Source of the DNA: a virus
Strand: one strand, 5' to 3'
IMG/VR virus record: IMGVR_UViG_3300037193_002766
Location: 1-60,911 of that record
Length of the DNA: 60,911 nt
Each line of letters begins with the position of its first letter. Positions within the stretch are counted from its first letter, which is position 1. The translations under genes were made by a program, and so were the position numbers. The notes under the pieces are model-generated. The model was given only the letters and a program-made list of their open reading frames with translations, was not told the DNA's origin and ran no database searches. Positions 9,050 to 35,097 of the stretch are shown here, in pieces.

Positions 9050-10654
9050 TCACGCCTCAGACTGCTCGCCGCCCGCGCCCTGCTCGTCCTCGCCCTGCTG
9101 TGGCCGGTTGACCACGATCTGCCCGCCCGTGAAGGTGTCCGGGTTCTCGACTGGCGGCCCTTCGATCGCCTTGACCTCCTTGTCGACGCGCGTCTTGTCC
9201 CAGTCCGGGTGGACCATTTCGACCTTCGTCCGTGTCGACACCGCGGCGGCCGCGTCGAGCAGCTGCACGGTGCGCGCCACCGTTTCGAGGTCCTCCGCGA
9301 CACCGTCTGGCCACTCGATCTCAGGCTCGTCGACGTCGGAGGAGCCTCCGAAGTGCGCGTAGTCCAGCTGCAGCAACACCGACGACATCTCGACTAGCGC
9401 CGGCGACCAGTAGAGCGTTTTGTGGCCACGCGTGAGGTAGGTGTCCTCTTGATCGGCCGCAACCTCGGTCGCGGTCTTCAAGCCTCCCTGGGTCTGGAAC
9501 CCGAAGGTCTCGCCGCTGTACCCACAGTCCTGCACGATCGCTTGGGACAGCTCACGCGCGGTGCCCAGGTGCTCCTCGAAGCGGATCGCGAACTGCGCCA
9601 CCGTGATCGGCGTTTGGCTGCCGGGCTGCGGCAGCATGCTGAGCGCCGAGTAGACCTCGCGCTCCGGATCCCACGACGCACCTCGACCGGGGCCGTTGTT
9701 CTGCAGGTACGCGTCCGGGACGACGATGCGTCCCTTGGCGAGCCGAATGTCGCGGAGCAGCGACGTCCACACTTCGTCGAGCGCATCGAGCATCGGCTCC
9801 GCGCCGGCGATGTCCGCGCGGCCGAGCTCGCACGCGGCCGGGATCTTGCGCCAGTACTTGTTGGGCCTCATGTTGGGCACGTACCGGACCGTCAGATCCT
9901 TGATCAGGGTCTCGATGCGGTCGCCGTCCTCGACCACGTCCACGTACTCGGTGGTCTCCGCATGCTCGTTGAGCGGGATCCTGCGGCCGAGATGATCCGG
10001 GGTGCCTTCGTAGAGGCCGTGCAGGATCGCGCCCGGTTCGTGGCGTTCGAGGTGCCGGATGACCCGGTTGCCGTCGTCCTCCAGCACGCGCCAGAACGAG
10101 CACGCGGTGAGCTTGCCGCCCTGCCACTGTGGAACCGCTGCGTCCGCGTAGGTGGTGTGCATCCACGGCTTGTTGGAGATGTCGGAGTTCCACAGCGCCC
10201 GCAGGTACACGCCGCCGTGGCCGGCGCAGAGTTCGCCGGCTTCAAGGAGTGTGGCGCGGAAGCTGTGGCCGAGCAGTTCGTCGAGCCGGTCCTGGGTGGC
10301 CGTCTGTTTGGCCTTGAAGGTGGGCGGTTCGGAGAACAGCAGCTTCGACGACTTGGCCGCGATGTCGGAGGCGAGCGGGATGTGGAGCTTGGCGCGCTGC
10401 TCGCCGAGCGGAATCGGGGTACCCCAGAACCAGCGGGCAAGCCGGCCGACGACGCCACCGCGGTACTGGCTGGGGTGGTTGCTGAGCCGGTTGCGGCTGA
10501 CCGAGTCGTAGCCGTGGGCGTAGGTGCTGCCGTAGATGTCGGCTAGGTGGTCAGGGTCTCCGGTGTACCAGGCGTCCCAGGAGTCGATACGGGCGAAGAC
10601 GGGGTCGAGCTGGCGTGGTGGCCAGGCGGTGTTTCCGCCTTCGGGGAGCGGCAC
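9050..10654 (-). CDS. Portal protein
   Basis: 534 aa. GTG at 10654 preceded by GGGAG. Position after terminase. SPP1 gp6-like length. Confidence 0.85.
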   Translation of the reverse strand: MPLPEGGNTAWPPRQLDPVFARIDSWDAWYTGDPDHLADIYGSTYAHGYDSVSRNRLSNHPSQYRGGVVGRLARWFWGTPIPLGEQRAKLHIPLASDIAAKSSKLLFSEPPTFKAKQTATQDRLDELLGHSFRATLLEAGELCAGHGGVYLRALWNSDISNKPWMHTTYADAAVPQWQGGKLTACSFWRVLEDDGNRVIRHLERHEPGAILHGLYEGTPDHLGRRIPLNEHAETTEYVDVVEDGDRIETLIKDLTVRYVPNMRPNKYWRKIPAACELGRADIAGAEPMLDALDEVWTSLLRDIRLAKGRIVVPDAYLQNNGPGRGASWDPEREVYSALSMLPQPGSQTPITVAQFAIRFEEHLGTARELSQAIVQDCGYSGETFGFQTQGGLKTATEVAADQEDTYLTRGHKTLYWSPALVEMSSVLLQLDYAHFGGSSDVDEPEIEWPDGVAEDLETVARTVQLLDAAAAVSTRTKVEMVHPDWDKTRVDKEVKAIEGPPVENPDTFTGGQIVVNRPQQGEDEQGAGGEQSEA

Positions 10655-11610: not shown

Positions 11611-11864
11611 GCAGAACCTTGAGGTGCCGAAACGGCCACAGGGGTGAAGTCGAGGTAGTACTGCTGGCCGAGTTCGAACTGGACGTTCGGATTGTCGACC
11701 GTGATCTCCAAGCTGCCACTCGGCGTGTACTTGGCGTACCGCTGATCCTCCGGCAGGTCAGCGTCGTACACGGCCTGGAACCTGTAGGTCCGGACGCCGT
11801 CGGCGACGTTGTAGGAGCTGCGCGTCTCGCTGATGCACATGAACTTCGCGCGGGTTGTGATCAT
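11607..11864 (-). CDS. Hypothetical protein
   Basis: 85 aa, coupled to terL. Confidence 0.6.
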   Translation of the reverse strand: MITTRAKFMCISETRSSYNVADGVRTYRFQAVYDADLPEDQRYAKYTPSGSLEITVDNPNVQFELGQQYYLDFTPVAVSAPQGSA

Positions 11865-13135
11865 GCTGCTTCCTCCATCGGTTCCAGCAGCTGGCCACGC
11901 CAGACCGCTTCCGTCGTGTAAATCGCGTACCGGCCGGCGTCGAGCGAGTGGTCCTCCGCCTTGATCGGCGCGTCCTCGCCCTTCTCACCCTTCTTCGGGT
12001 CCCAGCTGTAGCCACCGATCTCCTCGGTCCAGCCCTTGCACGACCGGTGCACCCGGAACTGGTCCATCGCGATCAGCGACGACACCGTGCGGATGCCGTC
12101 CACCACCGCGTTGTTCGCCAACGTCGGCGTCAGCGTCTTGTCGGCGTACAGCTGCGTCACGAACGACTTCGCCGACGGGTCCACCACCGTCCACTCCGGA
12201 TGCACCCGGAGCCCGGTCAGCCACGCGGTGAGGCGCTGGCTGTACTCGGAGTCGGTCAGCGGCCGGTGCGAGGCCTTGCTGTCGTAGCGCCACTCGTGCG
12301 CCAGGTACAGGCGCTTGTCGACACCCAAGCCGAGCAGGAGTGCGGCGAACGGGTTCGTCGTGCCGTAGTCGATGCCCAGCGCGATCCAGCGGGTCATCGT
12401 GGGCAGGATGTCCACGATCATCTTGTCGGACCAGGCGTCGTACACGGCGCCCTCGGCGAGGCACCACTCGCCCTTGATGAACCGGCGGAACCACAACCCG
12501 ACGTACTGCCGCTTGAGCCGCGCAACGTAGGCCGGCTCCAGCGATGGGTTGTCGGCGAGCTGGAAGTGCCAGTGCCGCATGCCGACGTCGGCGGCCTTGA
12601 GGATGAAGTTCTTCCGCAGCCAGTGACCCGGACCGTCAGGGTTCGTCGTGGCCATCAGCTTCGCGCCCGGTACGCGGAGTCGGGACAGCAGCATCATCCA
12701 GAACCCGACCGGCACGAGCGTGGCCTCGTCGACGTACGCGAGTGCGATGGTCATGCCTCGGATGCGGTCCTCGGCGCGGATGTCGTTGGCGCCGATGATG
12801 TGGACGGTGCGGCCGAGGATCGTGGCGGTGTTCGCGCCGCGGGTGTGGTGGACGAACGCGGCGAACGGGCCGAACAGCAGCGGGGACTGCAGGGGCTCGA
12901 TCAGGTTCCGCTCGATGGTGTCCTTCGTCTTGCCCATGATCACGATCAGGCCGTGCGACGGGGCGACGGTGATCGCGATCAGGAACGCCAGCAACGAGGC
13001 GATCGTCTTGCCGGACGACACCGCGCCGGACCAGAGCGCGATCTGCGGCGTCTCCTGCGCGCGGACGACGCTGCGGATCTGCTTGGGCGACAGGATCTTC
13101 GTGATGCGCTGAAGATCAATCGTCGGCGGCATCAT
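11861..13135 (-). CDS. terL: Terminase large subunit
   Basis: 424 aa. Walker A GAVSSGKT. Nuclease-like C-terminal half. Follows the small subunit. Confidence 0.85.
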   Translation of the reverse strand: MMPPTIDLQRITKILSPKQIRSVVRAQETPQIALWSGAVSSGKTIASLLAFLIAITVAPSHGLIVIMGKTKDTIERNLIEPLQSPLLFGPFAAFVHHTRGANTATILGRTVHIIGANDIRAEDRIRGMTIALAYVDEATLVPVGFWMMLLSRLRVPGAKLMATTNPDGPGHWLRKNFILKAADVGMRHWHFQLADNPSLEPAYVARLKRQYVGLWFRRFIKGEWCLAEGAVYDAWSDKMIVDILPTMTRWIALGIDYGTTNPFAALLLGLGVDKRLYLAHEWRYDSKASHRPLTDSEYSQRLTAWLTGLRVHPEWTVVDPSAKSFVTQLYADKTLTPTLANNAVVDGIRTVSSLIAMDQFRVHRSCKGWTEEIGGYSWDPKKGEKGEDAPIKAEDHSLDAGRYAIYTTEAVWRGQLLEPMEEAA

Positions 13136-14123: not shown

Positions 14124-14342
14124 TCAAGCAGACTCGCGTAAGTGGTCGCTGCGGTGGTCGCCACGCCGGTCGAGGTACGCGGTGATCTCGCCGAGGTCGT
14201 AGCCGCGGCCCTTGGAGATCAGGTTGCGGTACTTCCAGTTGCGTACGGCGCTGTCGCTGACGTTGTAGCGCTCGTCGCCGGTGCGCTCGTACTCCTGCCT
14301 GAGCGCGAGCATCACGAGGTCCAGCGGCACGCGGTCAGCCAC
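14124..14342 (-). CDS. Hypothetical small protein
   Basis: 72 aa, 8-nt overlap with the upstream gene. Confidence 0.55.
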   Translation of the reverse strand: MADRVPLDLVMLALRQEYERTGDERYNVSDSAVRNWKYRNLISKGRGYDLGEITAYLDRRGDHRSDHLRESA

Positions 14343-14682
14343 GGTAGTAACCCCCCTCTGCGAGGCGTGACAAGACGAGTTCGAGAGTCACCCCGGATGG
14401 GCTGGAGTCGTGCCACACGCCATGCAGTCGTAGGCCTCGTAGCCTCTCGTCCCGATCAACGAGGTAAAGAGACCGCCCGAACACGGTGCACAACCCGCGG
14501 CGAGGTGAAACGTTCATTCCGACGCCTGCGATGCGGAGCATCGGACGCACCACCTCGTTCAGCGCACGCGGGATGCTGTCCGTGACGAGAGCGAAAGCCG
14601 CTCGATCCGGGCTGGCTGCGATGATCCGCAGGAAGTCCACCAGCCGCGATTCGAGCCCGGACTGCTCACGCCCGGCGCTCAT
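14335..14682 (-). CDS. Hypothetical protein
   Basis: ATG at 14682 (MSAGREQSG...). The ORF track extends to 14718. Confidence 0.5.
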   Translation of the reverse strand: MSAGREQSGLESRLVDFLRIIAASPDRAAFALVTDSIPRALNEVVRPMLRIAGVGMNVSPRRGLCTVFGRSLYLVDRDERLRGLRLHGVWHDSSPSGVTLELVLSRLAEGGYYRG

Positions 14683-15343
14683 GACGCTCCTTCTGCTCGG
14701 CGAGACGTTGCAGATCAAGCCCGTTGTAGAGCCGGTGTCCGCCCCCCGAGCACGGCTCGCTGCACCGACCGCCCCGCGCGGTCTGGAACACCGTGCCCGC
14801 GCACCCAGGCGTGAGACACGACCCGAGCGGTTTCGGTGGTGCGTCGTGCGCCTGCCGGCATGTCTGCGCGTGCAGCTGCTTTACGACCAGCACGAACTGG
14901 TCGCCCCACGTCTGCCAGGTGCACCACTCGGCGTTGATTCGCAGGTAGCGGGCCAGGCTCGGCACTGTGAGCAGCGGTCGGCTGTCCGGGTGGTCGTCGT
15001 CGACCCGCCGAGACCACACGTACCGACCGATCTGGCTCAGGCTGCCCAGGATCGACAGCGTCGCCTCGTGCGGGTCGTCGTCCGTGCCGTTGCCGTCGAC
15101 GTGGCTGCGGTAGTCGAGTGCGACGAGCTTGTCGAGGTTGAGCGGTTCGCGTGGCCCGTAGCCGCCTGCGCGGGGGAGGCCGTCGAGGACGCTGCGGCTG
15201 GGAAGGAGGCCGACGGTGCCGATGATGATGACGTGGTCCTGGATCTCGTCGAGCCGGCGCCAGGTGTCGCGGACGCAGAGCGGGCAGGCCCAGCGCAGCG
15301 TGGTCGATTCGCGGTGGCAGACGCGGCAGGCTGTCGTGGCCAT
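14666..15343 (-). CDS. Hypothetical protein with Cys clusters at both ends (zinc-ribbon-like)
   Basis: 225 aa. CRVCHRESTTLRWACPLC at the N terminus and CLTPGC...CSEPC at the C terminus. Confidence 0.6.
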   Translation of the reverse strand: MATTACRVCHRESTTLRWACPLCVRDTWRRLDEIQDHVIIIGTVGLLPSRSVLDGLPRAGGYGPREPLNLDKLVALDYRSHVDGNGTDDDPHEATLSILGSLSQIGRYVWSRRVDDDHPDSRPLLTVPSLARYLRINAEWCTWQTWGDQFVLVVKQLHAQTCRQAHDAPPKPLGSCLTPGCAGTVFQTARGGRCSEPCSGGGHRLYNGLDLQRLAEQKERHERRA

Positions 15344-15347
15344 GGCG

Positions 15348-15536
15348 TCACTCGTCGAGGTTGCGGAGGCATTCGGCGGCCTCGGTGTGTCCAGCGGCCG
15401 TGAGGAGGTCGGCGTAGTGCGCTCGGATTTCGCCGGCGCGTCGGTCGACGAGTGTGGCGACAGCTTCTTCGAATGCCGGGTCGTTGACCAGGTCGTCGAT
15501 CGAGGTGCCTTGGGTGGGTTCGTGCAGCTCAGCCAT
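15348..15536 (-). CDS. Hypothetical small acidic protein
   Basis: ATG at 15536 preceded by GGGGAG. The ORF track extends to 15596, into the lower-GC spacer. Confidence 0.5.
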   Translation of the reverse strand: MAELHEPTQGTSIDDLVNDPAFEEAVATLVDRRAGEIRAHYADLLTAAGHTEAAECLRNLDE

Positions 15537-15753
15537 GGTGCTCCCCTGCGGCCTGGGGTTGGCTAGTTGATCTGCGGAATATAGGTCCTTTCGCACGTAA
15601 GTTCTATTCCATCCGCAGGTGTCTGGGTGGGTTGTTACCGCGGCCAGGAATGGGCAAGTCGAATGCGGAAATGAACGCGACCGCTATAAATGTCAGCAAT
15701 ACGAGACCTGTCGGTGTCGACACCCCGGCGAGTAGCTTGAGCAGGATCTAGTC

Positions 15754-15999
15754 GTGCAGACATACTCAAGCCGGGACTGGCCGTACAGAGGGGAGCCCGC
15801 CGTGGCGTTTCGATGCTTGGCGACCGAATCGTGCAAGGACGGATACACCTGCCCCAGCATCTGGGTCGACGACGCCGACCCAGAGCACGTCGTGGTAGTC
15901 GGCCAGCTGATCGATCCAGGCCCAGACGTTCCGATGGCCGACGGCGAGCGCGCAGTGCGACTCCGCCGAGACACCGTCATCCGCGCCAACCTGGCGTAA
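15754..15999 (+). CDS. Hypothetical 81-aa protein, first gene of the plus-strand cassette
   Basis: GTG start after a lower-GC 217-bp spacer. No family recognised. Confidence 0.5.
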   Translation: MQTYSSRDWPYRGEPAVAFRCLATESCKDGYTCPSIWVDDADPEHVVVVGQLIDPGPDVPMADGERAVRLRRDTVIRANLA

Positions 16000-16004
16000 A
16001 GCGC

Positions 16005-16529
16005 ATGGACCTCAAGGATGTAGCTCGCCTCTTCGAGCAGTCAGCGAAGTCCGCGTTCCGTCTGGAGACGCTCCCGACCTACCTCGTGCCGCAGGAAGAA
16101 GACGCGCTCGCCGCATGGCGAGCCGGAGACCGGCGCCTGGACACACCCCAGGACAGCCCCTGGCTCGCCCGAATCAGGGCGAGCACCAACACCGGCTACC
16201 AATGGTCACGCGTCCACGTGCTGGACTACCCGCTCACCGAATACAGCGAGTTCGAGCTGTTTGGCTACCAAGCGCTGGTGGCGGCCGGCGAGCAGGTCTA
16301 CGTCGCAGACCGCGCCGACTCTCCCGAGTTGGAGCAGCTGCGCGAGGACTTCTGGGTCCTCGACGACGCCACCGTCATTCGCATGATCTACGACGCCAAC
16401 GGCCGGTTCCTGCAACCGGAACTCGTCGACGACATCGACCCCTACCTCGAAAGCCGGGACGTCGCGTTGCGTCACAGCGAGCCTCTCGCCGTTTACCTGG
16501 CGCGGCGCGAGCCGCGGCTCATCGCATGA
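16005..16529 (+). CDS. DUF6879-like protein
   Basis: 174 aa from ATG 16005 (MDLKDVARLFEQSAKSAFRLETLPTYL...). Motifs FRLET, RVHVLDYPLTEY and DFWVLDD match my recollection of DUF6879. Confidence 0.6.
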   Translation: MDLKDVARLFEQSAKSAFRLETLPTYLVPQEEDALAAWRAGDRRLDTPQDSPWLARIRASTNTGYQWSRVHVLDYPLTEYSEFELFGYQALVAAGEQVYVADRADSPELEQLREDFWVLDDATVIRMIYDANGRFLQPELVDDIDPYLESRDVALRHSEPLAVYLARREPRLIA

Positions 16530-17383
16530 ACCCCACGCCGGACGACAAGGCGAGGCTCGCGTCGACGCTCAAGAATCTCCGCGTCGACGCCGGACTCTCG
16601 ACGACCAGGCTCGCTGGCGTGTTGGGCTGGTCGCAGTCGAAGGTCTCGAAGACCGAGACAGGGCGCACCATGCCCGCGCCGGACGACGTGGCCGCGTGGT
16701 GCCGCCAGGTCAACGCGCCCGCCGGGGTGCGCGAGGAGCTGGTCGAGATCGCCGCAGCGGCCGCGGCTCAAGCCACGGAGTGGCGTCGCGAGCTGGCGCC
16801 CGGCCGTCGTCGCAAGCAGGACGACATCCGGCGCATGGAGCACAAGGCGTCGGTGATCCGGGTCTTCGCGCCGGACGTGGTCGTCGGTCTCGCGCAGACC
16901 AGGGCGTACGTGGAGAAGATGTTCCGGCTCGGCCGCAAGATCGGGCCTGTCGACGAACCGGCCGAGGATGTGATCAACGCACGTCTCGCACGCGCTGAGG
17001 TGCTCGACCGCACGGACAAGGTGTTCGTCCTGCTGATGGGCGAGTTCGCGCTTCGCCGGACCCTCATCCCCGCCGAGGAGATGCGGGCACAGATCCAGTG
17101 GCTGATCGAACTGTCACATCGGCCGAACATCGACGTCGAGGTCATCCCGTTCGCGGCCGAGGAGAAGGTGCACCAGTACAACGGGTTCGCGATCTTGGGT
17201 GACCCGGATGTCGACGATGAGGCGATCGTGCTCGCCGAGACTCTGACGCGCGGTCTGAGCATCCGTTCGAGTGAAGAGATCCGGGAGTACATCGAGCACT
17301 TCGACGCCCTTCGTGTCGCCGCTATTCGGGGCGATGAGCTGCGGGAATTCCTTCAGGAGGTCATCGACGGGCTCCCCAGGTGA
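16526..17383 (+). CDS. XRE-family HTH regulator with DUF5753 domain (WhiJ/Scr1-like)
   Basis: 285 aa, ATGA overlap with the upstream gene. HTH LSTTRLAGVLGWSQSKVSKTETG. DUF5753-like IRVFAPDVVVGLAQTRAY and FALRRTL. Confidence 0.8.
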   Translation: MNPTPDDKARLASTLKNLRVDAGLSTTRLAGVLGWSQSKVSKTETGRTMPAPDDVAAWCRQVNAPAGVREELVEIAAAAAAQATEWRRELAPGRRRKQDDIRRMEHKASVIRVFAPDVVVGLAQTRAYVEKMFRLGRKIGPVDEPAEDVINARLARAEVLDRTDKVFVLLMGEFALRRTLIPAEEMRAQIQWLIELSHRPNIDVEVIPFAAEEKVHQYNGFAILGDPDVDDEAIVLAETLTRGLSIRSSEEIREYIEHFDALRVAAIRGDELREFLQEVIDGLPR

Positions 17384-17484
17384 TTCCTCACGGCCTTGCC
17401 TAGTCTTGCTCTTCATTTGAAGTCGCGACTAACCTCGTTGGCGACATACGCGCCATAGCGAGCACGACGACCGAGGGAGAGCGG

Positions 17485-17712
17485 ATGAGCGGCCAGACAA
17501 CCTCAGGGCCGGCCGACGCCGAGCCCGTCTACACCCTCAAGGAGATCGCGCGGCCCTTGCGGGTGAGCACCGCCACCCTGCGGCGCCGGATCGCTTCAGG
17601 CGAGCTCGACGCGTTCCGGGTGGGACGCGGCCTGCGTGTCACCGAGTCGGCGCGCGACGCCTACTTCGAGCGGATCGGCTACAAGCCGCAGCGGGCGCAG
17701 GTGACGACGTGA
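17485..17712 (+). CDS. Excisionase-family (MerR-like) HTH DNA-binding protein
   Basis: 75 aa. YTLKEIARPLRVSTATLRRRIASGELDAFRVGRGLRV. RBS GAGGGAG. Confidence 0.7.
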   Translation: MSGQTTSGPADAEPVYTLKEIARPLRVSTATLRRRIASGELDAFRVGRGLRVTESARDAYFERIGYKPQRAQVTT

Positions 17713-18278
17713 CCATCACGGTGAACTGCGCGATCACCAGCGACGTCACCAGGCACCGCGCCTGGAACACCGGCAGCGGCAACGGCGAGGTGTGGCGCGT
17801 CTCCTGGAACCCCAGCCAGGCCTACACCCACGAGCAGGCCATCACCGCCATGTACATCGCCGAACTCGTCGGCAGCAACTACGCCAGCCCCCAGGACGGC
17901 ATCACCTCCCTGCCCGGCTGGGCGATCGAGCTCGGCCTGACCGCCAGCGACGCCGTGCGGCTCCTGCTCAACCACCAGTCCTGGGGCTACGCCGTCCGCC
18001 ACAGCACGCTGCCGTGGCAGCACAAGTCGCTCCTGCTGCTGCTCGGCACCTACCTGGACACCGACGGCACCTACCACCGCCCCGCCGCCAGCGAGATCTC
18101 GGACGTTGCCGGTCTCGGCGAGCAGGACACCGTCGATCTGCTCATGGAACTCGAAGCCGCGGGCTGGTTCTCCTGGCACACGGTCACCGGCACGGACGTC
18201 AACGGCCGATCGGCGCAGGACAGCTTTGCCCCCGTCCACACGGGACCCGCGCCTCCGCCACCCGCCGAGGCGATCTGA
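17709..18278 (+). CDS. Hypothetical protein (possible winged-helix C-terminal part)
   Basis: 189 aa, GTGA overlap with the upstream gene. Confidence 0.6.
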   Translation: MTITVNCAITSDVTRHRAWNTGSGNGEVWRVSWNPSQAYTHEQAITAMYIAELVGSNYASPQDGITSLPGWAIELGLTASDAVRLLLNHQSWGYAVRHSTLPWQHKSLLLLLGTYLDTDGTYHRPAASEISDVAGLGEQDTVDLLMELEAAGWFSWHTVTGTDVNGRSAQDSFAPVHTGPAPPPPAEAI

Positions 18279-18313
18279 CTACCCACTAGCCGACGAGCAC
18301 GAGGGGACACACC

Positions 18314-18508
18314 ATGCCGAACCTGGACGAGATCAGCGACGAGGAAGCCGAAGCCGGCGCGCTCACCGCCATGTGGGGACAGCTGGAGGCGTTCGCCGCC
18401 CGCTCCGGCCTGGACCTGCGGGCGGAAGTCCTTGAGGACCTCACGGACGAGGAATTCGCCGAGGCGCAGCGGACCGTCGCGTTCATGCGCGCAGGGTTCG
18501 AGGGGTAG
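18314..18508 (+). CDS. Hypothetical small acidic protein
   Basis: 64 aa, RBS GAGGGGA. Confidence 0.55.
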   Translation: MPNLDEISDEEAEAGALTAMWGQLEAFAARSGLDLRAEVLEDLTDEEFAEAQRTVAFMRAGFEG

Positions 18509-18512
18509 CGCC

Positions 18513-19016
18513 ATGCCGGTCACCGCTACCCAGGCCGCACAGCTCGCGCCCGGCTGGGAGACCACCTCGTACCACGAGGCCGGCCACGCCCTCGCGGCGC
18601 TCGAACTCGGCTTGCCGGTGCACCAGGTCAGCCTCCGCTACGAGCGCCGGTTCCTGCGATGGGCCGTGGTCGGGCAGACCGCGGTCGCACCGCCCGGTCA
18701 CACGATCGAGGTCGACGAGACCCGCGAACTGCTGTTCACCGTCGCGGGCATCGAGGCCGAGGCGCAGTGGCTCGTCTGGCGCGACAACATCGACTTCCCG
18801 CAGGAACGCCGCCTGGCCGAGTCGAACCCGGTGAACCAGGCCGGGGACATGGCCGAGATCGCAGCGTGCCTGCCCGCCGCCACCTTCACCTACGCCGAGG
18901 CCCAGCAGTGGGCGTTCAACCTGTTCGCCATCCACTGGCACACCGTCTCGACCATCGCCCAGCGGCTCCGCGACACCGGGCACATCACCGGCCGCCAGCT
19001 CGCCCACCTCGCCTGA
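18513..19016 (+). CDS. Stand-alone FtsH-like (M41-type) HEXXH metalloprotease domain
   Basis: 167 aa from ATG 18513. TSYHEAGHALAALELG matches the FtsH protease-domain signature. No AAA+ module. Confidence 0.65.
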   Translation: MPVTATQAAQLAPGWETTSYHEAGHALAALELGLPVHQVSLRYERRFLRWAVVGQTAVAPPGHTIEVDETRELLFTVAGIEAEAQWLVWRDNIDFPQERRLAESNPVNQAGDMAEIAACLPAATFTYAEAQQWAFNLFAIHWHTVSTIAQRLRDTGHITGRQLAHLA

Positions 19017-19033
19017 GCAAGGAGACCAGCGCC

Positions 19034-19237
19034 ATGCCCCGAACTCTGCCTTCCGAGTTCACCGCTGACGAACTCGACGCGATGCGCGACTGGCTCGACG
19101 ACGCCTGCCGTCAGTCCCTCGCCGACGAGGGCTTCACCGTTGACGACCTCGACGACGAGGACGTCCTGATCGGCATCAACACCCACCACATCGACGGCAT
19201 CCGGGGATTCCTCAACCTCTTCCACGACGAGGACTGA
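19034..19237 (+). CDS. Hypothetical small highly acidic protein
   Basis: 67 aa, RBS AAGGAGA, Asp/Glu-rich. Confidence 0.55.
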   Translation: MPRTLPSEFTADELDAMRDWLDDACRQSLADEGFTVDDLDDEDVLIGINTHHIDGIRGFLNLFHDED

Positions 19238-19264
19238 CCCAGCCCCGAGCAAGGAGACCCGCCT

Positions 19265-20149
19265 GTGAACACCGCCCAGCCTGTCAAGCCGCCCCGAGCA
19301 CCGGGCTTCTGGTGGGCCCTCGCCGGCTTCGGCCTGGGCTCCCTCGTCTCGGTCGGCTTCAACCTCCAGTCCGCCTGGCTCCCCGCCGCCGAACACGGAC
19401 CGAACTGGTCGCCGAGCCTCGCTTCCCAGGCCGCCGCCGTCGTGTGGCCGCTGACGCTCATCGTCAGCGTCGAGGTCCTCTCCCGCGTCACCTGGCCCGA
19501 CGGCAACGGCTGGAAGCTCGTCCGCTTCAGCGGCATCCTCGCCGTCGCCCTCGGCTCCGCAACCATCTCCTACGGCCACATCTACGAGGTCCTCATCGCC
19601 TGGGGCTACGACCGGCACCAGGCGATCGTCGGCCCGCTCGTCGTCGACGGCCTGATGCTCATCTCCGGCTTCGCCTTGGTCGCGCTCGGGAGGGCCGCCC
19701 GCGACGCGCTCCACGTCTCCCAGGAGGCCGTCGCCGAGCCTCCCGCAGTGCCCTCCCGCACCCCTGTCGTTCCTCGCCGCCCCGTCCCCTCAGGTGGCGA
19801 GGAACCCGCCGTCCCGGTCGCGTCCATCCCCCCGACCCCCGCGACCGGGACGGCACCTCAGGAGGCCTCCCAGCTTCGTCCTGAGGAGGCCTCCCAGGCG
19901 GCTCCCGAGGAGGCACGCGCCGCCCTCCATCTCGTGCAGACCAGGCGCGTCAGGAAGACCTCCCGGAAGACCTCCCGCACCGACGTCAGCAACGAGGACG
20001 TGTTCGCCGAGATCGCCTCCTACGCACGGGAGCACGACGGCGACCTCCCGACCGCGAACTGGCTGAAGAACAAGCTCACGATCGGCGCCTCCCGCGCCAA
20101 GAACCTCCTCACGGAGTACACGAACGACAAGCAGGAGGCCCTGGCATGA
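19265..20149 (+). CDS. DUF2637-like integral membrane protein
   Basis: 294 aa with 4 TM segments. ISYGHIYEVL...GPLVVDGLMLISGFALVAL fits DUF2637, a family typical of actinomycete conjugative elements. Confidence 0.7.
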   Translation: MNTAQPVKPPRAPGFWWALAGFGLGSLVSVGFNLQSAWLPAAEHGPNWSPSLASQAAAVVWPLTLIVSVEVLSRVTWPDGNGWKLVRFSGILAVALGSATISYGHIYEVLIAWGYDRHQAIVGPLVVDGLMLISGFALVALGRAARDALHVSQEAVAEPPAVPSRTPVVPRRPVPSGGEEPAVPVASIPPTPATGTAPQEASQLRPEEASQAAPEEARAALHLVQTRRVRKTSRKTSRTDVSNEDVFAEIASYAREHDGDLPTANWLKNKLTIGASRAKNLLTEYTNDKQEALA

Positions 20150-21849
20150 GCTGGCCCCCCGAAGGCTCGCAGCCGCCCAGCCCACCCCGCGTCACGCCCG
20201 CACCGCGGCCGCGTCCGGAGCGACCCTCACCGCCTGCCTCACCTGGTGAGGCGAAGGTGAAACCGCAGGCCAACACACCTGCGGCGCAGCCGCCGCAGTT
20301 CGGGCACGACGGCATCGACCCGCGCCGCGCCGCCCTGATCCTCGGCCTGCCGCTGCTCGCGATCGCAGGCACGCTGCTCTTCCTGTTCGCCTCGCCGCTG
20401 GTGTGGTGGATCGCCGTCGGCGTGGCCGTGGCGGGCGTGGCGGGAGGTGTGTTGCTGCGCCGCTCCGGGAGGGCGCGGGGTGCTCTCGGCCGTCTGCCCG
20501 GTGCCGGGAGGCTGTCGGCCGGGTTGCGGCGTGCCGCGAACGGGAGGTTCGCCCGGTCACCTCTCGGGAGGGTGGTCAACCGCGCGCTCGGGAGGCGACC
20601 GGCGGCCGCGTCAGGAGGCTCCTCGGGAGGGCCCGCGTCCCGACCGAAGGGGCTCGGCGGGAGGCTGCGGTCGATGCTCCCGTCGTGGGCGGGAGGCACC
20701 CGCGCGAAGCGTCCAGGAGGGCCGGGAGGCACCTCCTCGGGAGGCAAGCCGGGAGGCAAGCCGGGAGGCAAGCCGGGAGGCCGGCTGCGGTCGATGCTGT
20801 CCCGTCTCAAGCCGGGCGGGAGGCGTCCCGCTGGCTCCTCCGGCAGCCTGACGGGAGGCCGTTCCGGAAGGGCGGGAGCCGCCTCCCACGGCGGCTCGAA
20901 GCCGAAGCCTGGGAGCCTCCTCGGGAGGGCGTCCCGCACCGCCGGGAGGGCCGGTCGCGCGGTCGGGTCGAAGCTGTTCGGCATCCGCCGCCCCACCGCC
21001 CCGGCGGGCACGGGCGGCTCCAGCAAACCGAAGGGCAAAGGCAGGACTCCCGCCGGCGGCTCCGGCAACGGCTCGACGCTGGAGCTGGGCGTGGTGTGGA
21101 CCGGCGTCGGCAAGGCCGGCCGCCTACTCGGCCGCGGCCTGGGCGGCCTCGTCGGGCGGTTCCGGAACCGGAAGCACACCGACGAGGACACCGACGACTT
21201 CGATCCGGACTCGACCTACGAGATCGGCATCGAGGGTGAGGTCGTCAACGGCAAGCACACCGACAGCGAACTCGCTGAAATCGCGAAACAAGCGAAGAAG
21301 CTGGCCAAGAAGCGCGCGAAGAGCGCCCCGGTGTGGCCGAACGTCGACCTCGACACCCTCCCGCCCCCGCCTGCTCCCACGCCACCGCCTACTCCGCAGA
21401 ACTGGCCGGACTACGACGTCGACGACTACGCCCCCACGCCGGAGCAGCCGCCCAAGCAGTCGTTACCGGCCGAGCGGGACCACGACCCGCCGCCCTCACC
21501 ACCCGTCTCACCCACGCCTCACCGTGAGGCACCCCGCATCACCAGCACAAACGGAGGAAAAACGATGGCCGTCTCACCCACCAAGTACAACGACCTGATC
21601 ACCACCGCCACCAGCCGCACCCAGGGCTGGCAGGCCGCCGCCGACGCGTTCCGCCGCGACGCCACCGAGCTGGACGAGAAGGCGAAGGAGCACGACAACG
21701 CCGCCGCAGTGTTCGAGCAGGCCGGCAACCACGCGGCCGCCGAGGAACGGCGCGACGAGGCCCGCCAGCTTCGCGACGACGCCAACACGTGCCTCACCTA
21801 CGCCGGACGGATGCAGGAGAAGGCCAACAACGAGGTCTCCGCCGCCTGA
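20146..21849 (+). CDS. Membrane-anchored Pro/Gly/Arg-rich low-complexity protein (Spd-like by context)
   Basis: 567 aa, ATGA coupling. TM region GLPLLAIAGTLLFLFASPLVWWIAVGVAVAGVAGGVLL. GGKP x3 and a duplicated GGRLRSML motif. Coiled-coil-like C terminus. Confidence 0.6.
   Translation: MSWPPEGSQPPSPPRVTPAPRPRPERPSPPASPGEAKVKPQANTPAAQPPQFGHDGIDPRRAALILGLPLLAIAGTLLFLFASPLVWWIAVGVAVAGVAGGVLLRRSGRARGALGRLPGAGRLSAGLRRAANGRFARSPLGRVVNRALGRRPAAASGGSSGGPASRPKGLGGRLRSMLPSWAGGTRAKRPGGPGGTSSGGKPGGKPGGKPGGRLRSMLSRLKPGGRRPAGSSGSLTGGRSGRAGAASHGGSKPKPGSLLGRASRTAGRAGRAVGSKLFGIRRPTAPAGTGGSSKPKGKGRTPAGGSGNGSTLELGVVWTGVGKAGRLLGRGLGGLVGRFRNRKHTDEDTDDFDPDSTYEIGIEGEVVNGKHTDSELAEIAKQAKKLAKKRAKSAPVWPNVDLDTLPPPPAPTPPPTPQNWPDYDVDDYAPTPEQPPKQSLPAERDHDPPPSPPVSPTPHREAPRITSTNGGKTMAVSPTKYNDLITTATSRTQGWQAAADAFRRDATELDEKAKEHDNAAAVFEQAGNHAAAEERRDEARQLRDDANTCLTYAGRMQEKANNEVSAA
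20739..20782 (+). repeat. 12-bp tandem repeat gggaggcaagcc x3.6 (encodes GGKP repeats)
   Basis: Read directly in the sequence. Confidence 0.9.
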
Positions 21850-21851
21850 CG

Positions 21852-21881
21852 TCTCACCTCTCACCTCACCCCCGTCTCACC
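21852..21881 (+). repeat. Cluster of four CTCACC motifs upstream of the translocase gene
   Basis: tctcacctctcacctcacccccgtctcacc. Motif copies start at 21853, 21860, 21865 and 21876. Confidence 0.85.
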
Positions 21882-21905
21882 GCCCTGACCTGCAAGGAGG
21901 TCGTC

Positions 21906-23954
21906 GTGTCGCTCAAGTCCTTCACCATCCTCGCGGGTCTGGGCGTGACGGTGCTCGCCGCCGTCGTCCTCGCGCTGTTCCGCACGTACATGGAGGGGCC
22001 ACCGCTGTGGGCGATCGCGGCCGGCGGCCTCGGTGTGGTCGCGCTGGCCGCATGGTGGTGGCACGGCGAACTCGGCCGCGGCGCCAACTACGTCGAGTTC
22101 TCCAGCGAGGCCCGCCGCTGGATGGCCCGCATGATCACCGCTGCGGTGCTGGTGCACTGCGTGTGGCTCGTGTGGACCCTCGCCGACCTGGACTCGTGGA
22201 GGGCGCATGCGCTGCGGCTGATCGGATTGTCGCTGCTGGAGTGGGTGGTGGCGCTGGCGTGGGACCACCGCCTCACCCACCTCCTGCCGCAGGCCAAGCC
22301 CGCCGCCGAGGTCGAGGTGTACCGGCCGACGCTGGTCGCCAACAACGAGCCACGGCTGCAGCCCGCGGACGAGCGGATGCAGCTCATCCTGCAGCGAGGC
22401 GGCTGGCCGTATGTGCTGGTCACGAAGGTGTGGATGCTGCCGGACGGACACAAGGGGGCGACCTTCGAGTGCCGCGCGCTGTCCAAGAGCCTCGCATCCG
22501 AGCTCTCCGGCAAGGAGGTGAGCACGGTGAAGGCGATCGCGCCCGGCGACGAGGAAGACCTCGCGATTGCCGCCGAGGAAGAGCTGGGTGTGGACCTGGA
22601 GACCAGCTGGGTGCGCATTCAGCCGACCAGACGTCCCGGCCGGGTGCTGGTCACCATCGCCACCGAGGACATCTTCGCGAAGCCGCTCCCGTACCAGCTG
22701 GTCACCACGCTCGCGGACCCCGCCGAGCCGATCGTGCTCGGCTCCCAGGTCCACGGTGACCCTGCCGCGTTGAACGTTCGTCAGCACGGCGTGATCTGCG
22801 GTCCGACCGGATCCGGCAAGACCGGCCTGGTCAACGTGCTGTTCGCCGAGCTCACCCGCAGGCCAGGCCGGATCTTCGTCTGCGGCGTCGAGAAGATCTA
22901 CGACCTGGTCGGCCAATGGCTCGACGTCCACCTCGACACCGACAACGACCTGCCCATCACCGCGGTCGTCGGCATCGACGACACCCTGCAGCTGCTGGCC
23001 GAGGTGTACTACGAGGCCCGCCGCCGGCAGAACCTTGAGCACCACGAGCGCGCGAACCTGGAGCCCTGGTACATCGTCATCGAGGAAGCGCCTGCGGTCC
23101 TGAACAACAACGAACGCCAGATCGAGATCGAAGGCCGCAACTACAACGCATCAGCGCTGGTAGCGCACCTGGACCGCACGATCCTGTCGGTCGAGATGTA
23201 CATGAAGAAGCTGGCCCAGGAGTACGACAACGCGATGTTCGGCGACAGCGCGGCGTCGATCAAAGGCAACTCCGGCTACAAGATCCTCATGCGGTCGCAG
23301 TCCGGCGACGAGCGGTCCCGCGCGTTCGGCCGGGGCTACGCCGCGCTGCGCGACCTCAACCACCCCGGCGAGATGTACATCAAGGACAACGCCGACCCCT
23401 ACGCCGCGAAGTGCCGCTACATCAACGAGATGCACGCCAACAAGAAGCGCCTGCACGAGGGCGTTGACATCGCCACCGTGTCGCTCGCGCGATCTGCGCT
23501 GGTCAAAGCACGCGCCAAGGGGCCGTTGTCGCCGTGGATGGCGGCGTTGCCGACCCGCATGACCCGCAGTTACCGCGACTACCTGCAGGGCAAGTGCGCC
23601 CTGCCGATGGATGCGGGAACCAGCCGCATCGCGATCGAGGCCGTCGACGCCGGCACGCTGGTCGACAAGGCGATCGCCGATTTGGAGGCGCAGCTCGACG
23701 AGCGAGACGCGCGTCGCCTGCGCGTGGTCGACAACGAGCCCGCCAAGCCGCGGATGCGGGACTTCATCGCCACCACGCTGGCCGACAACACCGACGGGAT
23801 GACCACCGACGAGGTGCTGTCCGCGGTGCTCGCCGCCGGCTACGAGCAGGCGTCGAAGTCGAGCGTGGAGAACGCGTTGACCGCGCTGCGCGGCAAGGGC
23901 CGGATCCGGTCCGTCGACGGCCCCTCGGGCCGCCGCGTGCACCAGGCCGCCTAG
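21906..23954 (+). CDS. FtsK/SpoIIIE-family DNA translocase, TraB/TraSA-like
   Basis: 682 aa from GTG 21906 (RBS AAGGAGG). N-terminal TM segments. Walker A GPTGSGKTG and Walker B YIVIEEAP. C-terminal winged-helix-like tail. Confidence 0.8.
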   Translation: MSLKSFTILAGLGVTVLAAVVLALFRTYMEGPPLWAIAAGGLGVVALAAWWWHGELGRGANYVEFSSEARRWMARMITAAVLVHCVWLVWTLADLDSWRAHALRLIGLSLLEWVVALAWDHRLTHLLPQAKPAAEVEVYRPTLVANNEPRLQPADERMQLILQRGGWPYVLVTKVWMLPDGHKGATFECRALSKSLASELSGKEVSTVKAIAPGDEEDLAIAAEEELGVDLETSWVRIQPTRRPGRVLVTIATEDIFAKPLPYQLVTTLADPAEPIVLGSQVHGDPAALNVRQHGVICGPTGSGKTGLVNVLFAELTRRPGRIFVCGVEKIYDLVGQWLDVHLDTDNDLPITAVVGIDDTLQLLAEVYYEARRRQNLEHHERANLEPWYIVIEEAPAVLNNNERQIEIEGRNYNASALVAHLDRTILSVEMYMKKLAQEYDNAMFGDSAASIKGNSGYKILMRSQSGDERSRAFGRGYAALRDLNHPGEMYIKDNADPYAAKCRYINEMHANKKRLHEGVDIATVSLARSALVKARAKGPLSPWMAALPTRMTRSYRDYLQGKCALPMDAGTSRIAIEAVDAGTLVDKAIADLEAQLDERDARRLRVVDNEPAKPRMRDFIATTLADNTDGMTTDEVLSAVLAAGYEQASKSSVENALTALRGKGRIRSVDGPSGRRVHQAA

Positions 23955-23955
23955 C

Positions 23956-24046
23956 TCTCACCTCACCTCTCACCTCACCACCCGCACACGCTCATGTGTG
24001 CAGGTAGGGACGTGTGTCCGAGGGTGAGGTGAGAGGTGAGGTGAGA
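23956..24046. repeat. Perfect 24-bp inverted repeat built from CTCACC units (43-nt spacer)
   Basis: tctcacctcacctctcacctcacc at 23956-23979 is the exact reverse complement of 24023-24046. The spacer holds a GCACAC/GTGTGC mini-hairpin. Starts 2 nt after the translocase stop. Confidence 0.9.
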
Positions 24047-24074
24047 CGCCCAACCCAACCAGAAGGAGCACCCC

Positions 24075-24359
24075 ATGTACGACACCGACCAACGCGAACT
24101 GACCGAGGTCGAGCAGGCGGTGTACCTGACCTACCTGCAGCTCTCCGAATGCCCGCAAGACTGGATCCGGATCGCCCGCATCCACGAGCACCTCGACTAC
24201 CACCCCGACGACATCAGCGACGCCATCGTCTCCCTCGTCCACAACGGCGACGCCCACATCGCACCCGAGTCGAACACGAAGGTCCTCACCGCCGAAGACC
24301 ACGCCGCGGCGATCCGGGAAGGCAGCGAAGCCTGCCACCTGATCCTGTTCGAGGACTGA
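24075..24359 (+). CDS. Hypothetical protein
   Basis: 94 aa, RBS GAAGGAG. Confidence 0.6.
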   Translation: MYDTDQRELTEVEQAVYLTYLQLSECPQDWIRIARIHEHLDYHPDDISDAIVSLVHNGDAHIAPESNTKVLTAEDHAAAIREGSEACHLILFED

Positions 24360-24361
24360 CG

Positions 24362-24700
24362 ATGATCACCGCCAGAGCACTCCGACGCCATCTGACTGCG
24401 CTCGGCAAGGAACTAGCCGACAACTGCTACTGCGAAGACCTGAACTGCGAATCGGACCTGTACCACCCCTACGAAGGCACCGGCCTCGGCGTCCCCCCAT
24501 ACGGCCTGACGCTCGTCACCCCCGACGGGAAACTCGACGAGGCCCGCAACAAGGAGTACATCGCGTACTGGTGGGGCAAGAGCGCGCACCTGGACGAGGT
24601 CCAGGATCAGATCGACGTGCTGGATGACTGGGCTGAGATCCTCTGCGTGATCGAACATCGCACCGGCAGGTTCTGGCGTGGTACCGACTTCGCTGGTTGA
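24362..24700 (+). CDS. Hypothetical protein
   Basis: 112 aa from ATG 24362. The ORF-track N-terminal extension reads through the inverted repeat and is discarded. Confidence 0.55.
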   Translation: MITARALRRHLTALGKELADNCYCEDLNCESDLYHPYEGTGLGVPPYGLTLVTPDGKLDEARNKEYIAYWWGKSAHLDEVQDQIDVLDDWAEILCVIEHRTGRFWRGTDFAG

Positions 24701-24705
24701 TCCCC

Positions 24706-24746
24706 GTAGGTGTTGCCTGCCGGGGCAGGCAACGGACAACACCTAC
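24706..24746. terminator. Interrupted GC-rich hairpin after the 24362 gene
   Basis: gtaggtgttgcctgcc / ggcaggcaac...caacacctac. Confidence 0.5.
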
Positions 24747-24778
24747 CCGCTGGTGTCCGCTGCGGTGAGGCTGGACTC

Positions 24779-25201: not shown

Positions 25202-25261
25202 GGGGGCATTCCTGGCGAGGTGTGCTTACGATGCCTGCACCCGTCAGCACTGGAGGTCGAC

Positions 25262-35094: not shown

Positions 35095-35097
35095 GGC

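Follow-up and report, generated by a model that had tools for sequence, protein, structure and literature searches.

What does a tightly packed unit of three genes, the last of which encodes a WhiJ/Scr1-type regulator, do in a temperate actinomycete phage? The unit (g1, g2, and g3) consists of three plus-strand open reading frames running in the same direction in the window, by which we mean the whole 60,911-nt stretch of phage DNA that was analyzed. The initial annotation had suggested a function expressed in the lysogen, either a toxin-antitoxin or abortive-infection type of defense or control of host development. Our analysis indicates that the locus is most likely a portable three-gene transcription-control cassette and probably not a toxin-antitoxin or defense system. 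The main reading, to which we assign a probability of roughly 0.55, is an autoregulated control cassette of the WhiJ/Scr1 type that gates the adjacent phage operon. The cassette and the spacer in front of it are laid out as follows.

15537-15801, no strand: divergent intergenic spacer of 265 bp (58% GC), from the start of the minus-strand gene (15536) to g1
15802-15999, plus strand: g1, small protein of 65 aa (homologues, 64 to 66 aa; ribosome-binding site GGGGAG at 15790-15795)
16005-16529, plus strand: g2, DUF6879 protein of 174 aa (Pfam E value, 6e-42), beginning 5 nt past the g1 stop
16526-17383, plus strand: g3, 285-aa regulator with an XRE HTH (residues 10 to 72) and a DUF5753 domain (residues 99 to 278), from Pfam and an AF2 model

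The 5′ limit of the cassette depends on the start of g1. A start at 15754 was rejected; the homologues, none of which falls outside the 64- to 66-aa range, begin at the residue equivalent to the GTG at 15802, and the ribosome-binding site upstream also supports this codon, which by sequence is most likely the g1 start. Positions 15737-15778 are noncoding and form a conserved, predicted promoter/operator. Since the start of g1 was moved, the spacer is 265 bp long rather than the 217 bp first described, whereas its lower GC content still stands (56.2% for 15537-15753 compared to 68.1% window-wide). The short gap between g1 and g2, together with the ATGA shared by the ends of g2 and g3, which is indeed seen at 16526-16529, makes this a tightly coupled operon. 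The cassette was also described as running against its flanking genes. This is true of the minus-strand genes upstream but not of the downstream genes (17485-25707), which are on the cassette's strand; what runs against the remaining genome is an entire 10-kb block that begins with the three cassette genes. It can nonetheless be called a unit of its own, as proposed, having its own conserved, predicted promoter/operator. The temperate nature of the phage was likewise borne out by a tyrosine integrase, a CI/Cro-like pair, a terminase, a portal, and a tape measure protein. By the closest homologues, candidate hosts are Pseudonocardiaceae such as Lentzea, Umezawaea, or Kutzneria. No tRNA genes were found in the 60.9-kb window, and an Rfam search of 15200-17800 returned sub-threshold chance matches only. 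Read depth was flat, at 4 to 15x along the contig, in four runs of unstated library type.

The family assignments of the initial annotation were upheld by Pfam. The middle protein is DUF6879 (PF21806; 143.4 bits against a cutoff of 23.9, covering profile positions 2 to 166 of 167), and the third carries HTH_31 (53.3 bits) followed by DUF5753 (122.6 bits; E value, 1.8e-35). The g3 protein scored below the cutoff of the NCBIfam Sco1979 family (NF058600, an equivalog model) at 106.5 versus 350 bits, meaning that it is related but not an equivalog. The order small protein, DUF6879, XRE/DUF5753 is conserved across Actinomycetota, and a survey of neighborhoods showed XRE-DUF5753 on the same strand and directly 3′ of DUF6879 in 77 of 90 fetched loci. 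By their sequences the cassette genes are real, far beyond chance, because of these profile E values and this synteny. The three-gene set is also present in 24 IMG/VR contigs, in Streptomyces phage Kromp, and in three further phage-like backbones. The pairing is not known to have been described as a phage-borne module, and the literature searched contained no mention of DUF6879. This phage is not the only carrier of the pairing. A DNA search against deposited phages gave nothing for the cassette and only short matches in an HTH gene of the terminase region.

A good example of a relative is Kromp (MH744420), in which gp31-gp30-gp29 match g1, g2, and g3 in kind and order at 27 to 29% identity: gp30 is DUF6879 (E value, 4.9e-57), gp29 is HTH_31 plus DUF5753, and gp31 aligns with the g1 family. 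The Kromp block opposes the adjacent tail/lysis genes and lies 2 to 4 kb from the integrase and the immunity repressor. All three of its proteins are annotated as "hypothetical protein," its small protein has no cysteine pair, and no HTH_17 gene follows its regulator.

The g1 family is undescribed so far. It has no Pfam family, and a library of 1.8 billion proteins held 26 genuine representatives at an E value of 0.001 or lower, a count that leaves out one repetitive 1,229-aa match. Its motifs are C-x5-C-P, VVVG/VVQG, and GE-x-AV. A small g1-like open reading frame lies 5′ of DUF6879 in 34 loci, and in the proteins P0108 and P0116, on several contigs, g1 is fused to the N terminus of DUF6879. 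A reading of g1 as a diverged BldB was rejected: none of 33 g1-family proteins matched DUF397, and an hhalign comparison of the family with seven DUF397 sequences gave a probability of 0.2%.

The noncoding DNA on both sides of the cassette contains matching promoter-like and operator-like elements, the former called by eye and by conservation.

15737-15766, plus strand: cassette promoter-like element (−35 TTGAGC at 15737-15742, 18-nt spacer, −10 CATACT at 15761-15766)
15749-15778, no strand: upstream operator-like palindrome TAGTC-N20-GACT, straddling the cassette −10
17401-17431, no strand: downstream operator-like palindrome TAGTC-N21-GACTA, 19 nt past the g3 stop
17406-17411 (TTGCTC) and 17430-17435 (TAACCT), separated by an 18-nt spacer: downstream promoter-like element, enclosed by the palindrome

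The window contains no more than two loci with the palindrome TAGTC-N20/21-GACT; both flank the cassette, and the downstream one matches on both strands. Among 34 close relatives (loci with g3 at 46% identity or more), 28 have the upstream site, about 47 nt before the g1 start, 26 have the downstream site, 11 to 19 nt past the g3 stop, and 22 have both; the background frequency is 0.031 sites per kb. None of 43 distant relatives has the upstream site. TTGAC/TTGCT and ATACT/ATGCT blocks are kept at equal spacing in 28 relatives, and in several relatives another site follows in tandem 34 bp away, as would be expected of operators. The DNA is homologous to a chromosomal locus (L028) over 15748-17678 at 75.5% identity, with the left edge exactly at the upstream site and the right edge inside the next phage gene. 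The possibility that the palindromes are the ends of a transposable unit was set aside, given that there is no transposase, that the sites sit at fixed offsets on promoter elements, and that they occur in tandem in relatives. A generic sigma-70 promoter scan found none and missed the cassette element, which has 8 of 12 matches; a terminator scan gave only two minus-strand matches inside g2, which are not meaningful. Together, the two flanking operator-like sites suggest that the cassette controls the adjacent operon, a possibility that the initial annotation did not take up. The downstream genes are listed below. Functional assignments beyond the first of them are weak.

17485-17712, plus strand: excisionase-family/HTH_17 protein of 75 aa, the probable first target gene
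17709-25707, plus strand: rest of the co-directional block
18432-19016, plus strand: HEAGH-motif protein (weak assignment)
19265-20149, plus strand: DUF2637 protein (weak assignment)
21789-23954, plus strand: FtsK/SpoIIIE-like P-loop protein of 721 aa (weak assignment)
24710-25201, plus strand: RapZ-C-like protein (weak assignment)

The first protein matches Pfam HTH_17 (E value, 1.4e-8; 35.3 bits against a cutoff of 27) and TIGR01764 "excise" (36 bits against 28.8), the latter a domain-level match only, and is predicted to be excisionase-like. The integrase lies 30 kb away from this gene. The HTH_17 gene accompanies the cassette in the chromosomal relative and in two phage-like contig families (L028, L094, and L097; 48 to 71% identity), and the four-gene unit as a whole is carried by three other phage-like backbones. 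In L094 and L097 it sits at a divergent junction and heads a long co-directional run of small genes. Both also have the downstream palindrome; the strict upstream palindrome is unmatched in these two and is degenerate (GATT for GACT) in L028. The rest of the block, 17709-25707, is possibly under the same control as the HTH_17 gene.

This position could mean that g3 is the main lysogeny repressor, holding an early operon off from the downstream operator-like site, with g1 and g2 as inducers or antirepressors. In the window, as in L094 and L097, a long run of small early-type genes that all point the same way opens with this unit at a divergent junction, and there is an operator-like site on the promoter-like element ahead of them. 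However, a conventional divergent CI/Cro-like repressor pair is present beside the integrase (46436-47422), separate from the cassette, and the immunity repressor of Kromp (gp38) is annotated separately, in addition to its cassette. Moreover, close homologues are functional next to RiPP genes in nonphage settings, and such a repressor would share its direction with the genes it silences. We therefore consider primary immunity an improbable role.

The chromosomal relatives bring in a second alternative. Related loci have a mobile, variable neighborhood, being found in phages, in prophages, and near conjugation genes, and the chromosomal ones are followed by RiPP genes (PCMT 11 times, Asn synthase 5 times, and PqqD twice, of 118 neighbors). 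This agrees with published reports in which DUF5753 regulators co-occur with graspetide clusters (PMC13097080, PMC8939145). The cassette might be a lysogenic-conversion "moron," in which g3 expressed from the prophage acts mainly in trans on host development or specialized metabolism, in the manner of WhiJ/Scr1-type regulators, and any effect on phage genes is incidental. Besides the RiPP neighbors of its close relatives, three observations would agree with this. First, chromosomal XRE-DUF5753 proteins regulate antibiotic production and differentiation pleiotropically (PMC10364602, PMC10294661). Second, prophage Samy transcribes its XRE-DUF5753/DUF397 pair in each of 10 noninducing conditions; by analogy with this pair, expression of the cassette in a lysogen is plausible. 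Third, the GC3 of g1 to g3 (0.79 to 0.86) is below that of the neighboring genes (0.91 to 0.94), which suggests acquisition from elsewhere. Against it, the only two such palindromes in the phage flank the cassette, the second of them on the promoter-like element that precedes the HTH_17 gene, and this gene stays with the cassette across four backbones. A role mainly in the host is improbable, though more likely than primary immunity.

What g2 and g3 might do as proteins was approached through predicted structures. The AF2 model of g2 (pLDDT, 95.7) found in Foldseek best matches that are nearly all members of the PLD superfamily (E value about 1e-3; TM score, 0.4 to 0.53): PLD3, a Streptomyces PLD, Zucchini, the DUF1669 domain of FAM83, BfiI, PssA, and PPK. 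In the g3 model (pLDDT, 84.8), the N-terminal domain resembles the HTH regulators C.BclI, ClgR, and DdrO, and the C-terminal domain resembles PLD-fold Zucchini, FAM83A, SauUSI, and NgoAVII; over g2 and this domain, PLD matches reach a probability of 1.0 and TM scores of 0.53 to 0.61 at E values of about 1e-3. The predicted folds of DUF6879 and DUF5753 match single PLD-type domains of about 150 to 190 aa, at the fold level only. The invariant residues of DUF6879 are F18, R19, E21, Y26, G64, R69, P76, Y80, Y88, W117, D120, Y129, and D130, and no His or Lys is invariant or near-invariant in 94 DUF6879 sequences; for this reason the catalytic HxK(x)4D (HKD) motif is absent, the equivalent strand being R69-V-[HR]71. 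Both DUF6879 and DUF5753 thus model as PLD-like folds that lack the HKD motif, with modest fold-level support in each case. Noncatalytic members are found elsewhere in the superfamily, such as the FAM83 DUF1669 pseudo-PLD and the C-terminal domains of PPK1 and TrmBL2; compared to the superfamily, DUF6879 has no HKD motif and no sequence similarity to any PDB chain (no matches of its profile to PDB sequences even at an E value of 10 or lower). An hhalign comparison of DUF6879 with DUF5753 was not significant, either with shallow alignments or with more diverse ones (P = 0.012 over 155 collinear columns; probability, 3.5%), which is why common ancestry and heterodimerization of the two are conjecture. 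An apparent fusion of DUF6879 to the regulator at one locus (L054) was rejected as an out-of-frame extension of an open reading frame.

These results bear on the defense role. In a toxin-antitoxin or abortive-infection system, DUF6879, with or without g1, would be the toxin and the XRE-DUF5753 protein its autoregulating antitoxin, and infection or loss of the element would free the toxin. Like type II systems whose XRE-HTH antitoxin gene follows the toxin gene (HigBA and MqsRA type), the cassette has small upstream genes, a downstream HTH protein that would be autoregulatory, overlapping genes in a tight operon, and a mobile location in phage, prophage, and conjugation-gene contexts. The PLD fold also serves nucleases (Nuc, BfiI, Zucchini, and SauUSI), and XRE/DUF397 pairs have been predicted to be type II toxin-antitoxin systems (Makarova 2009, as cited in PMC10364602 and PMC7159879). 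However, the cassette differs from type II systems in having three genes, no match to a toxin family, no catalytic motif, and a second operator-like site on a neighboring promoter. Neither g1 nor g2 matched any family in PADLOC-DB v2, and g3 matched generic HTH models only. The lack of an invariant His or Lys in DUF6879, and hence of the HKD motif, also speaks against this role; the sister XRE/DUF397 pairs of S. coelicolor were nontoxic in 15 of 15 tested (PMC10364602); and five loci (L044, L046, L047, L048, and L053) have two or three tandem DUF6879 copies before a single regulator. Finally, the site on the downstream promoter and the RiPP association are features of a regulator. We found nothing that favors the defense proposed in the initial annotation, and it is unlikely to be what the cassette provides.

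The published systems closest to the main reading are the WhiJ/BldB/AbaA modules, which include Scr1/Scr2 (SCO4441/4442), WhiJ9-BldB9-IosA, and SCO1979. Their regulators have an XRE HTH and a C-terminal DUF5753 in about 280 aa, as does g3 (PMC10364602, Table 1), and are clustered tightly, as g3 is, with small partner proteins that do not bind DNA. Both kinds of unit occur many times per genome, beside natural-product clusters and on phages. Fusions support partner relations in both, between BldB and WhiJ in one (PMC10294661) and between g1 and DUF6879 in the other. WhiJ9 is an autorepressor that binds its own intergenic region and also controls the neighboring gene, with BldB as a partner that lacks DNA binding (PMC10294661); this combination of own-region binding and adjacent-gene control fits the two-site layout of the cassette.

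The differences are also clear. In place of DUF397 or HATPase_c_2 proteins, the cassette has as partners a DUF6879 protein of 174 aa and a Cys-Pro protein of 65 aa. Pfam found no DUF397 match in g1 or g2; HATPase_c_2 was not found in the nine window proteins scanned (14124-18278) and is absent from the top 25 neighbor families of related loci. On phages, the more usual arrangements are seen in Samy, where gp91/gp90 is an XRE-DUF5753/DUF397 pair with gp90 a clear DUF397, and in Picard, whose gp25/gp24/gp26 make up a full triad that includes an AbaA-like HATPase_c_2 protein, with gp24 a clear DUF397. The partners lie upstream of the regulator in the cassette and downstream in the WhiJ modules, and the candidate cassette operator is an inverted repeat present twice, whereas that of WhiJ9 consists of three direct repeats. 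WhiJ9 activates its neighbor, so the sign of regulation in the cassette could be opposite to the one proposed below.

On the reading of an autoregulated cassette that gates the adjacent operon, the layout would be operator/promoter, g1, g2, g3, operator/promoter, and target. The g3 protein would be the DNA-binding component, probably acting as a dimer on both 29- to 31-bp palindromes. At the upstream palindrome, on the cassette −10, it would repress its own operon; at the downstream palindrome it would control the promoter-like element ahead of the HTH_17 gene (17485-17712), and this control would probably extend over the remainder of the 10-kb block. The g1 and g2 proteins would be partner or input proteins that do not bind DNA and set the activity of g3, comparable to DUF397/BldB and AbaA for WhiJ. 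Binding of g1 to g2 is proposed from their fusion in some genomes. In turn, g2 may pair with the DUF5753 domain of g3 and alter its oligomeric state or DNA affinity, because both belong to the same noncatalytic PLD-like fold class and PLD-fold domains typically act as dimers or pseudodimers. A signal might be received by the cysteine pair of g1 or by the conserved Arg, Glu, Asp, and Tyr residues of g2. The cassette would in this way couple a cellular signal to an excisionase-like, early-type operon, apart from the CI/Cro-like switch beside the integrase. A bolder version, which we offer as speculation with the odds well against it, is a hitherto unrecognized signal-input switch of temperate actinophages. 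In it, a WhiJ-type repressor would answer to DUF6879, a catalytically dead PLD-like domain that duplicates the repressor's sensor fold as a separate protein and pairs with DUF5753, and to g1 as a cysteine adaptor; prophage excision and early genes would respond to a signal from the host (redox, developmental, or metabolite) alongside CI/Cro, and the host would reuse the same operator-bracketed unit for RiPP clusters.

XRE-DUF5753 (WhiJ-like) proteins belong to the regulator families that have expanded most, and are understood least, in Streptomyces-type bacteria. The locus would represent a second, undescribed partner set for them, made up of DUF6879 and a new small-protein family. The candidate operator TAGTC-N20/21-GACT and a defined target promoter make this concrete and testable, and the structural idea is that the partner and the sensor domain of the regulator may both be PLD-like pseudoenzymes. 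For natural products, the same cassette is suggested to gate lasso-peptide or PIMT-type RiPP clusters. Being phage borne, it could serve as a compact model in which to learn whether modules of this kind govern induction or excision or else convert the host.

The initial annotation had proposed the three-gene cassette as an autonomous unit, and the analysis bears this out: the cassette is genuine and self-contained, and the phage carrying it is temperate. The second gene (g2, 16005-16529) gave a full-length match to Pfam DUF6879 (E = 6e-42) and the third (g3, 16526-17383) matched HTH_31 and DUF5753 (E = 1.8e-35), as had been predicted. The ATGA overlap of these two genes and the low GC content of the preceding spacer (15537-15753, 56% versus 68% overall) were also confirmed. 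The first gene (g1), however, had been drawn too long. It most likely starts at GTG 15802 and encodes 65 aa, with a ribosome-binding site (GGGGAG) at 15790-15795, and all of its homologues are 64 to 66 aa long with an equivalent start. By comparison with the relatives' DNA, the 48 extra bases are a conserved, putative promoter/operator stretch.

By its sequence, the window is a temperate tailed phage. Exactly 141 bp are shared by its two ends (1-141 and 60771-60911), which means that the assembly is circular and, rather than a piece of chromosome flanked by host DNA, represents a complete phage genome; its unique length is 60,770 bp. The main phage features are as follows.

9050-10654, minus strand, SPP1-type portal
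11861-13135, minus strand, large terminase (57-59% identity to Streptomyces phages Raleigh, ToastyFinz, and Vondra)
46436-46783, minus strand, Cro/XRE-like gene (115 aa), adjoining the repressor-like gene
46895-47422, plus strand, repressor-like gene (175 aa), divergent from the Cro/XRE-like gene
48165-49454, plus strand, tyrosine integrase
56607-59672, minus strand, tape measure

The integrase lies 0.7 kb from the divergent repressor-like and Cro/XRE-like pair, a conventional lysogeny module (46436-47422, 48165-49454). This means that the phage has a second regulatory switch, distinct from the cassette. Nearly all genes are on the minus strand except for a 10-kb plus-strand block (15802-25707), of which the cassette forms genes 1 to 3. 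Of the opposed orientation to both flanks described initially, only the upstream half stands, since the next downstream genes share the strand of the cassette. Just upstream and divergent is a 225-aa protein (14666-15343, minus strand) with two CxxC pairs near its N terminus and no family match in Pfam, NCBIfam, or PHROGs. Elsewhere, within a 1,057-aa protein (32121-35294, minus strand), a C-5 cytosine DNA methylase domain is embedded near residue 390; the protein may be a fusion enzyme with which the phage protects itself from restriction.

Conservation of the unit was analyzed in 90 loci encoding DUF6879, 24 viral (IMG/VR) and 66 genomic. An XRE-DUF5753 gene followed DUF6879 on the same strand in 77 of them, mostly within 100 bp, and four of the other 13 (L009, L027, L057, and L075) have a contig end or partial gene. 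A small co-directional ORF preceded DUF6879 in 34 loci. Their products belong to a single family that shows, in this order, C-x5-6-C-P, VV(Q/V)G, G-E-x-(A/V)-V, and a short C-terminal helix. The family has no Pfam model, and a 1.8-billion-protein library yielded 26 genuine representatives at E ≤ 0.001, one repetitive 1,229-aa match being left out. The g1-type domain is fused to the DUF6879 N terminus in two proteins (P0108 and P0116), and a few loci have it as a tandem duplicate; such patterns classically indicate that g1 and g2 work jointly. In L044, L046 to L048, and L053, two or three DUF6879 copies stand ahead of a single regulator. Among 50,697 deposited phage genomes, DUF6879 was found only in Streptomyces phage Kromp, where gp31, gp30, and gp29, all annotated as hypothetical, are the equivalents of g1, g2, and g3 in the same order. 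The integrase and annotated immunity repressor of Kromp lie 2 to 4 kb away.

When relatives from unrelated contexts were aligned, three elements proved conserved in the DNA upstream of g1: a −35-like TTGA(C/G), a −10-like (C/G)AT(A/G)CT, and, spanning the −10 element, the inverted repeat TAGTC...GACT. A scan of the whole window for TAGTC-N16-24-GACT gave two loci only, 15749-15778 and 17401-17431, the latter matching on both strands. The second palindrome lies 19 nt past the g3 stop codon and encloses a promoter-like TTGCTC-N18-TAACCT ahead of the next gene. Thus, the cassette is bracketed by two copies of one putative binding site, both placed on core promoter-like elements. In the 34 close relatives (≥46% regulator identity to g3), the upstream palindrome was present about 47 nt 5′ of the g1 start in 28, the downstream one 11 to 19 nt after the regulator stop in 26, and both in 22; several had a second downstream palindrome 34 bp further on. 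The upstream palindrome was found in none of the 43 more distant relatives, and the background elsewhere in 925 kb of fetched DNA was 0.031 per kb. Occurrence in close but not distant relatives is the pattern expected if operator and HTH co-evolve. g3 would bind both palindromes, repress its own promoter, and control the promoter following the cassette.

The genes behind this second promoter-like element include the following.

17485-17712, plus strand, excisionase-family/HTH_17 protein, directly after the cassette
18432-19016, plus strand, small HEAGH-motif (HExxH zinc-protease-like) protein, three genes after the regulator
19265-23954, plus strand, DUF2637 membrane protein, 567-aa unknown protein, and 721-aa P-loop protein

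The HEAGH protein, for which Pfam, NCBIfam, and PHROG gave no family, recalls the ImmA-type anti-repressor proteases near XRE repressors. The P-loop protein has weak similarity to FtsK/SpoIIIE and to conjugation ATPases, and the block also holds other proteins without assigned function. Gene sets like that of 19265-23954, which lies within this inverted block, are more usual in conjugative elements of actinomycetes than in phages.

DNA homology to the closest chromosomal copy (L028, recorded as Streptomyces sp. ID05-26A) is restricted to 15748-17678 (75.5% identity), a span that takes in both operator-like sites, g1 to g3, and the greater part of the HTH_17 gene. This four-gene unit also sits at a divergent junction, heading long strings of small co-directional genes, in L094 and L097, two further phage-like contig families, both with the downstream palindrome at +19. 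L094 also encodes an Acb2/Tad1-hairpin protein (434-691, minus strand; anti-CBASS/anti-Thoeris sponge family) about 7 kb upstream. The upstream neighbors of cassette relatives are diverse. Downstream of chromosomal cassettes, RiPP genes are frequent: the 118 neighbors include 11 PCMT-type methyltransferases, 5 asparagine-synthase-like cyclases, and 2 PqqD proteins, besides 3 integrases and 2 conjugation coupling proteins. In line with this, published reports place DUF5753 regulators alongside graspetide and PIMT clusters (PMC13097080, PMC8939145). Five RiPP-associated relatives, L046 (9402-9470), L055 (9402-9470), L072 (9400-9468), L081 (9277-9345), and L048 (10988-11056), have two tandem palindromes 34 bp apart, with a ribosome-binding site and ATG within about 15 nt 3′. 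From its sequence, this arrangement looks like a direct operator-controlled promoter, possibly serving a precursor-peptide gene or the first gene for biosynthesis.

The AlphaFold model of DUF6879 (pLDDT 95.7) gave best PDB matches that were nearly all of the phospholipase-D (PLD) superfamily (PLD3, Streptomyces PLD, Zucchini, FAM83 DUF1669, BfiI, PssA, and PPK; E of ∼1e-3, TM of 0.4 to 0.53), as did a viral structure library. The invariant residues include R19, E21, Y26, R69, Y80, Y88, W117, D120, Y129, and D130; none is His or Lys, and therefore the HKD catalytic motif is missing. In the g3 model (pLDDT 84.8), the HTH resembles C.BclI/ClgR/DdrO, and the C-terminal DUF5753 domain unexpectedly also gave PLD-fold matches (Zucchini, FAM83A, SauUSI, and NgoAVII; target-normalized TM up to 0.61). 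Profile-profile comparison of DUF6879 and DUF5753 was collinear but not significant, and we claim a shared fold class in the models, not homology. PLD-type domains normally act as dimers, which suggests that DUF6879 may dock on the DUF5753 domain.

g3 is a WhiJ/Scr1-type regulator, whose canonical partners are DUF397 (BldB) and AbaA-like proteins. The cassette differs in having its own partners, DUF6879 and the g1 family (unrelated to DUF397), another gene order, and two palindromic sites. In L078 (6315-9418) and L082 (1136-4171), a canonical XRE-DUF5753/DUF397 pair lies directly 5′ of a g1-like/DUF6879/XRE-DUF5753 cassette, both module kinds side by side, each with its own partner families. 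WhiJ9 binds its own intergenic region, represses itself, and controls the neighboring gene, and BldB binds no DNA and acts through protein contacts (PMC10294661). Canonical modules are also found on phages: Samy gp91/gp90, with transcription in all 10 non-inducing conditions (S3 table, PMC11302927), and the full triad gp25/gp24/gp26 of Streptomyces phage Picard. In Picard (L003, 3007-4782), AbaA-like gp26 (HATPase_c_2), WhiJ-like gp25 (DUF5753), and BldB-like gp24 (DUF397) are deposited as "histidine kinase," "DNA binding protein," and "hypothetical protein," respectively. DUF6879 goes unmentioned in the searched literature library, and no paper there presents a WhiJ-type module in the role of phage regulator.

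The initial annotation had also considered toxin-antitoxin or abortive-infection defense. XRE/DUF397 pairs had likewise been predicted as toxin-antitoxin systems, but in Streptomyces coelicolor 15 of 15 pairs (Scr1/Scr2 earlier, the other 14 in the cited study) were non-toxic, pleiotropic regulators (PMC10364602). Nothing specific for either kind of defense was found in the cassette, and this is not where the evidence points. Action in trans on host genes is possible. Functional statements on the cassette all derive from comparative genomics and predicted structures, and this evidence favors a module that controls transcription and is tied to the neighboring excisionase-like operon.
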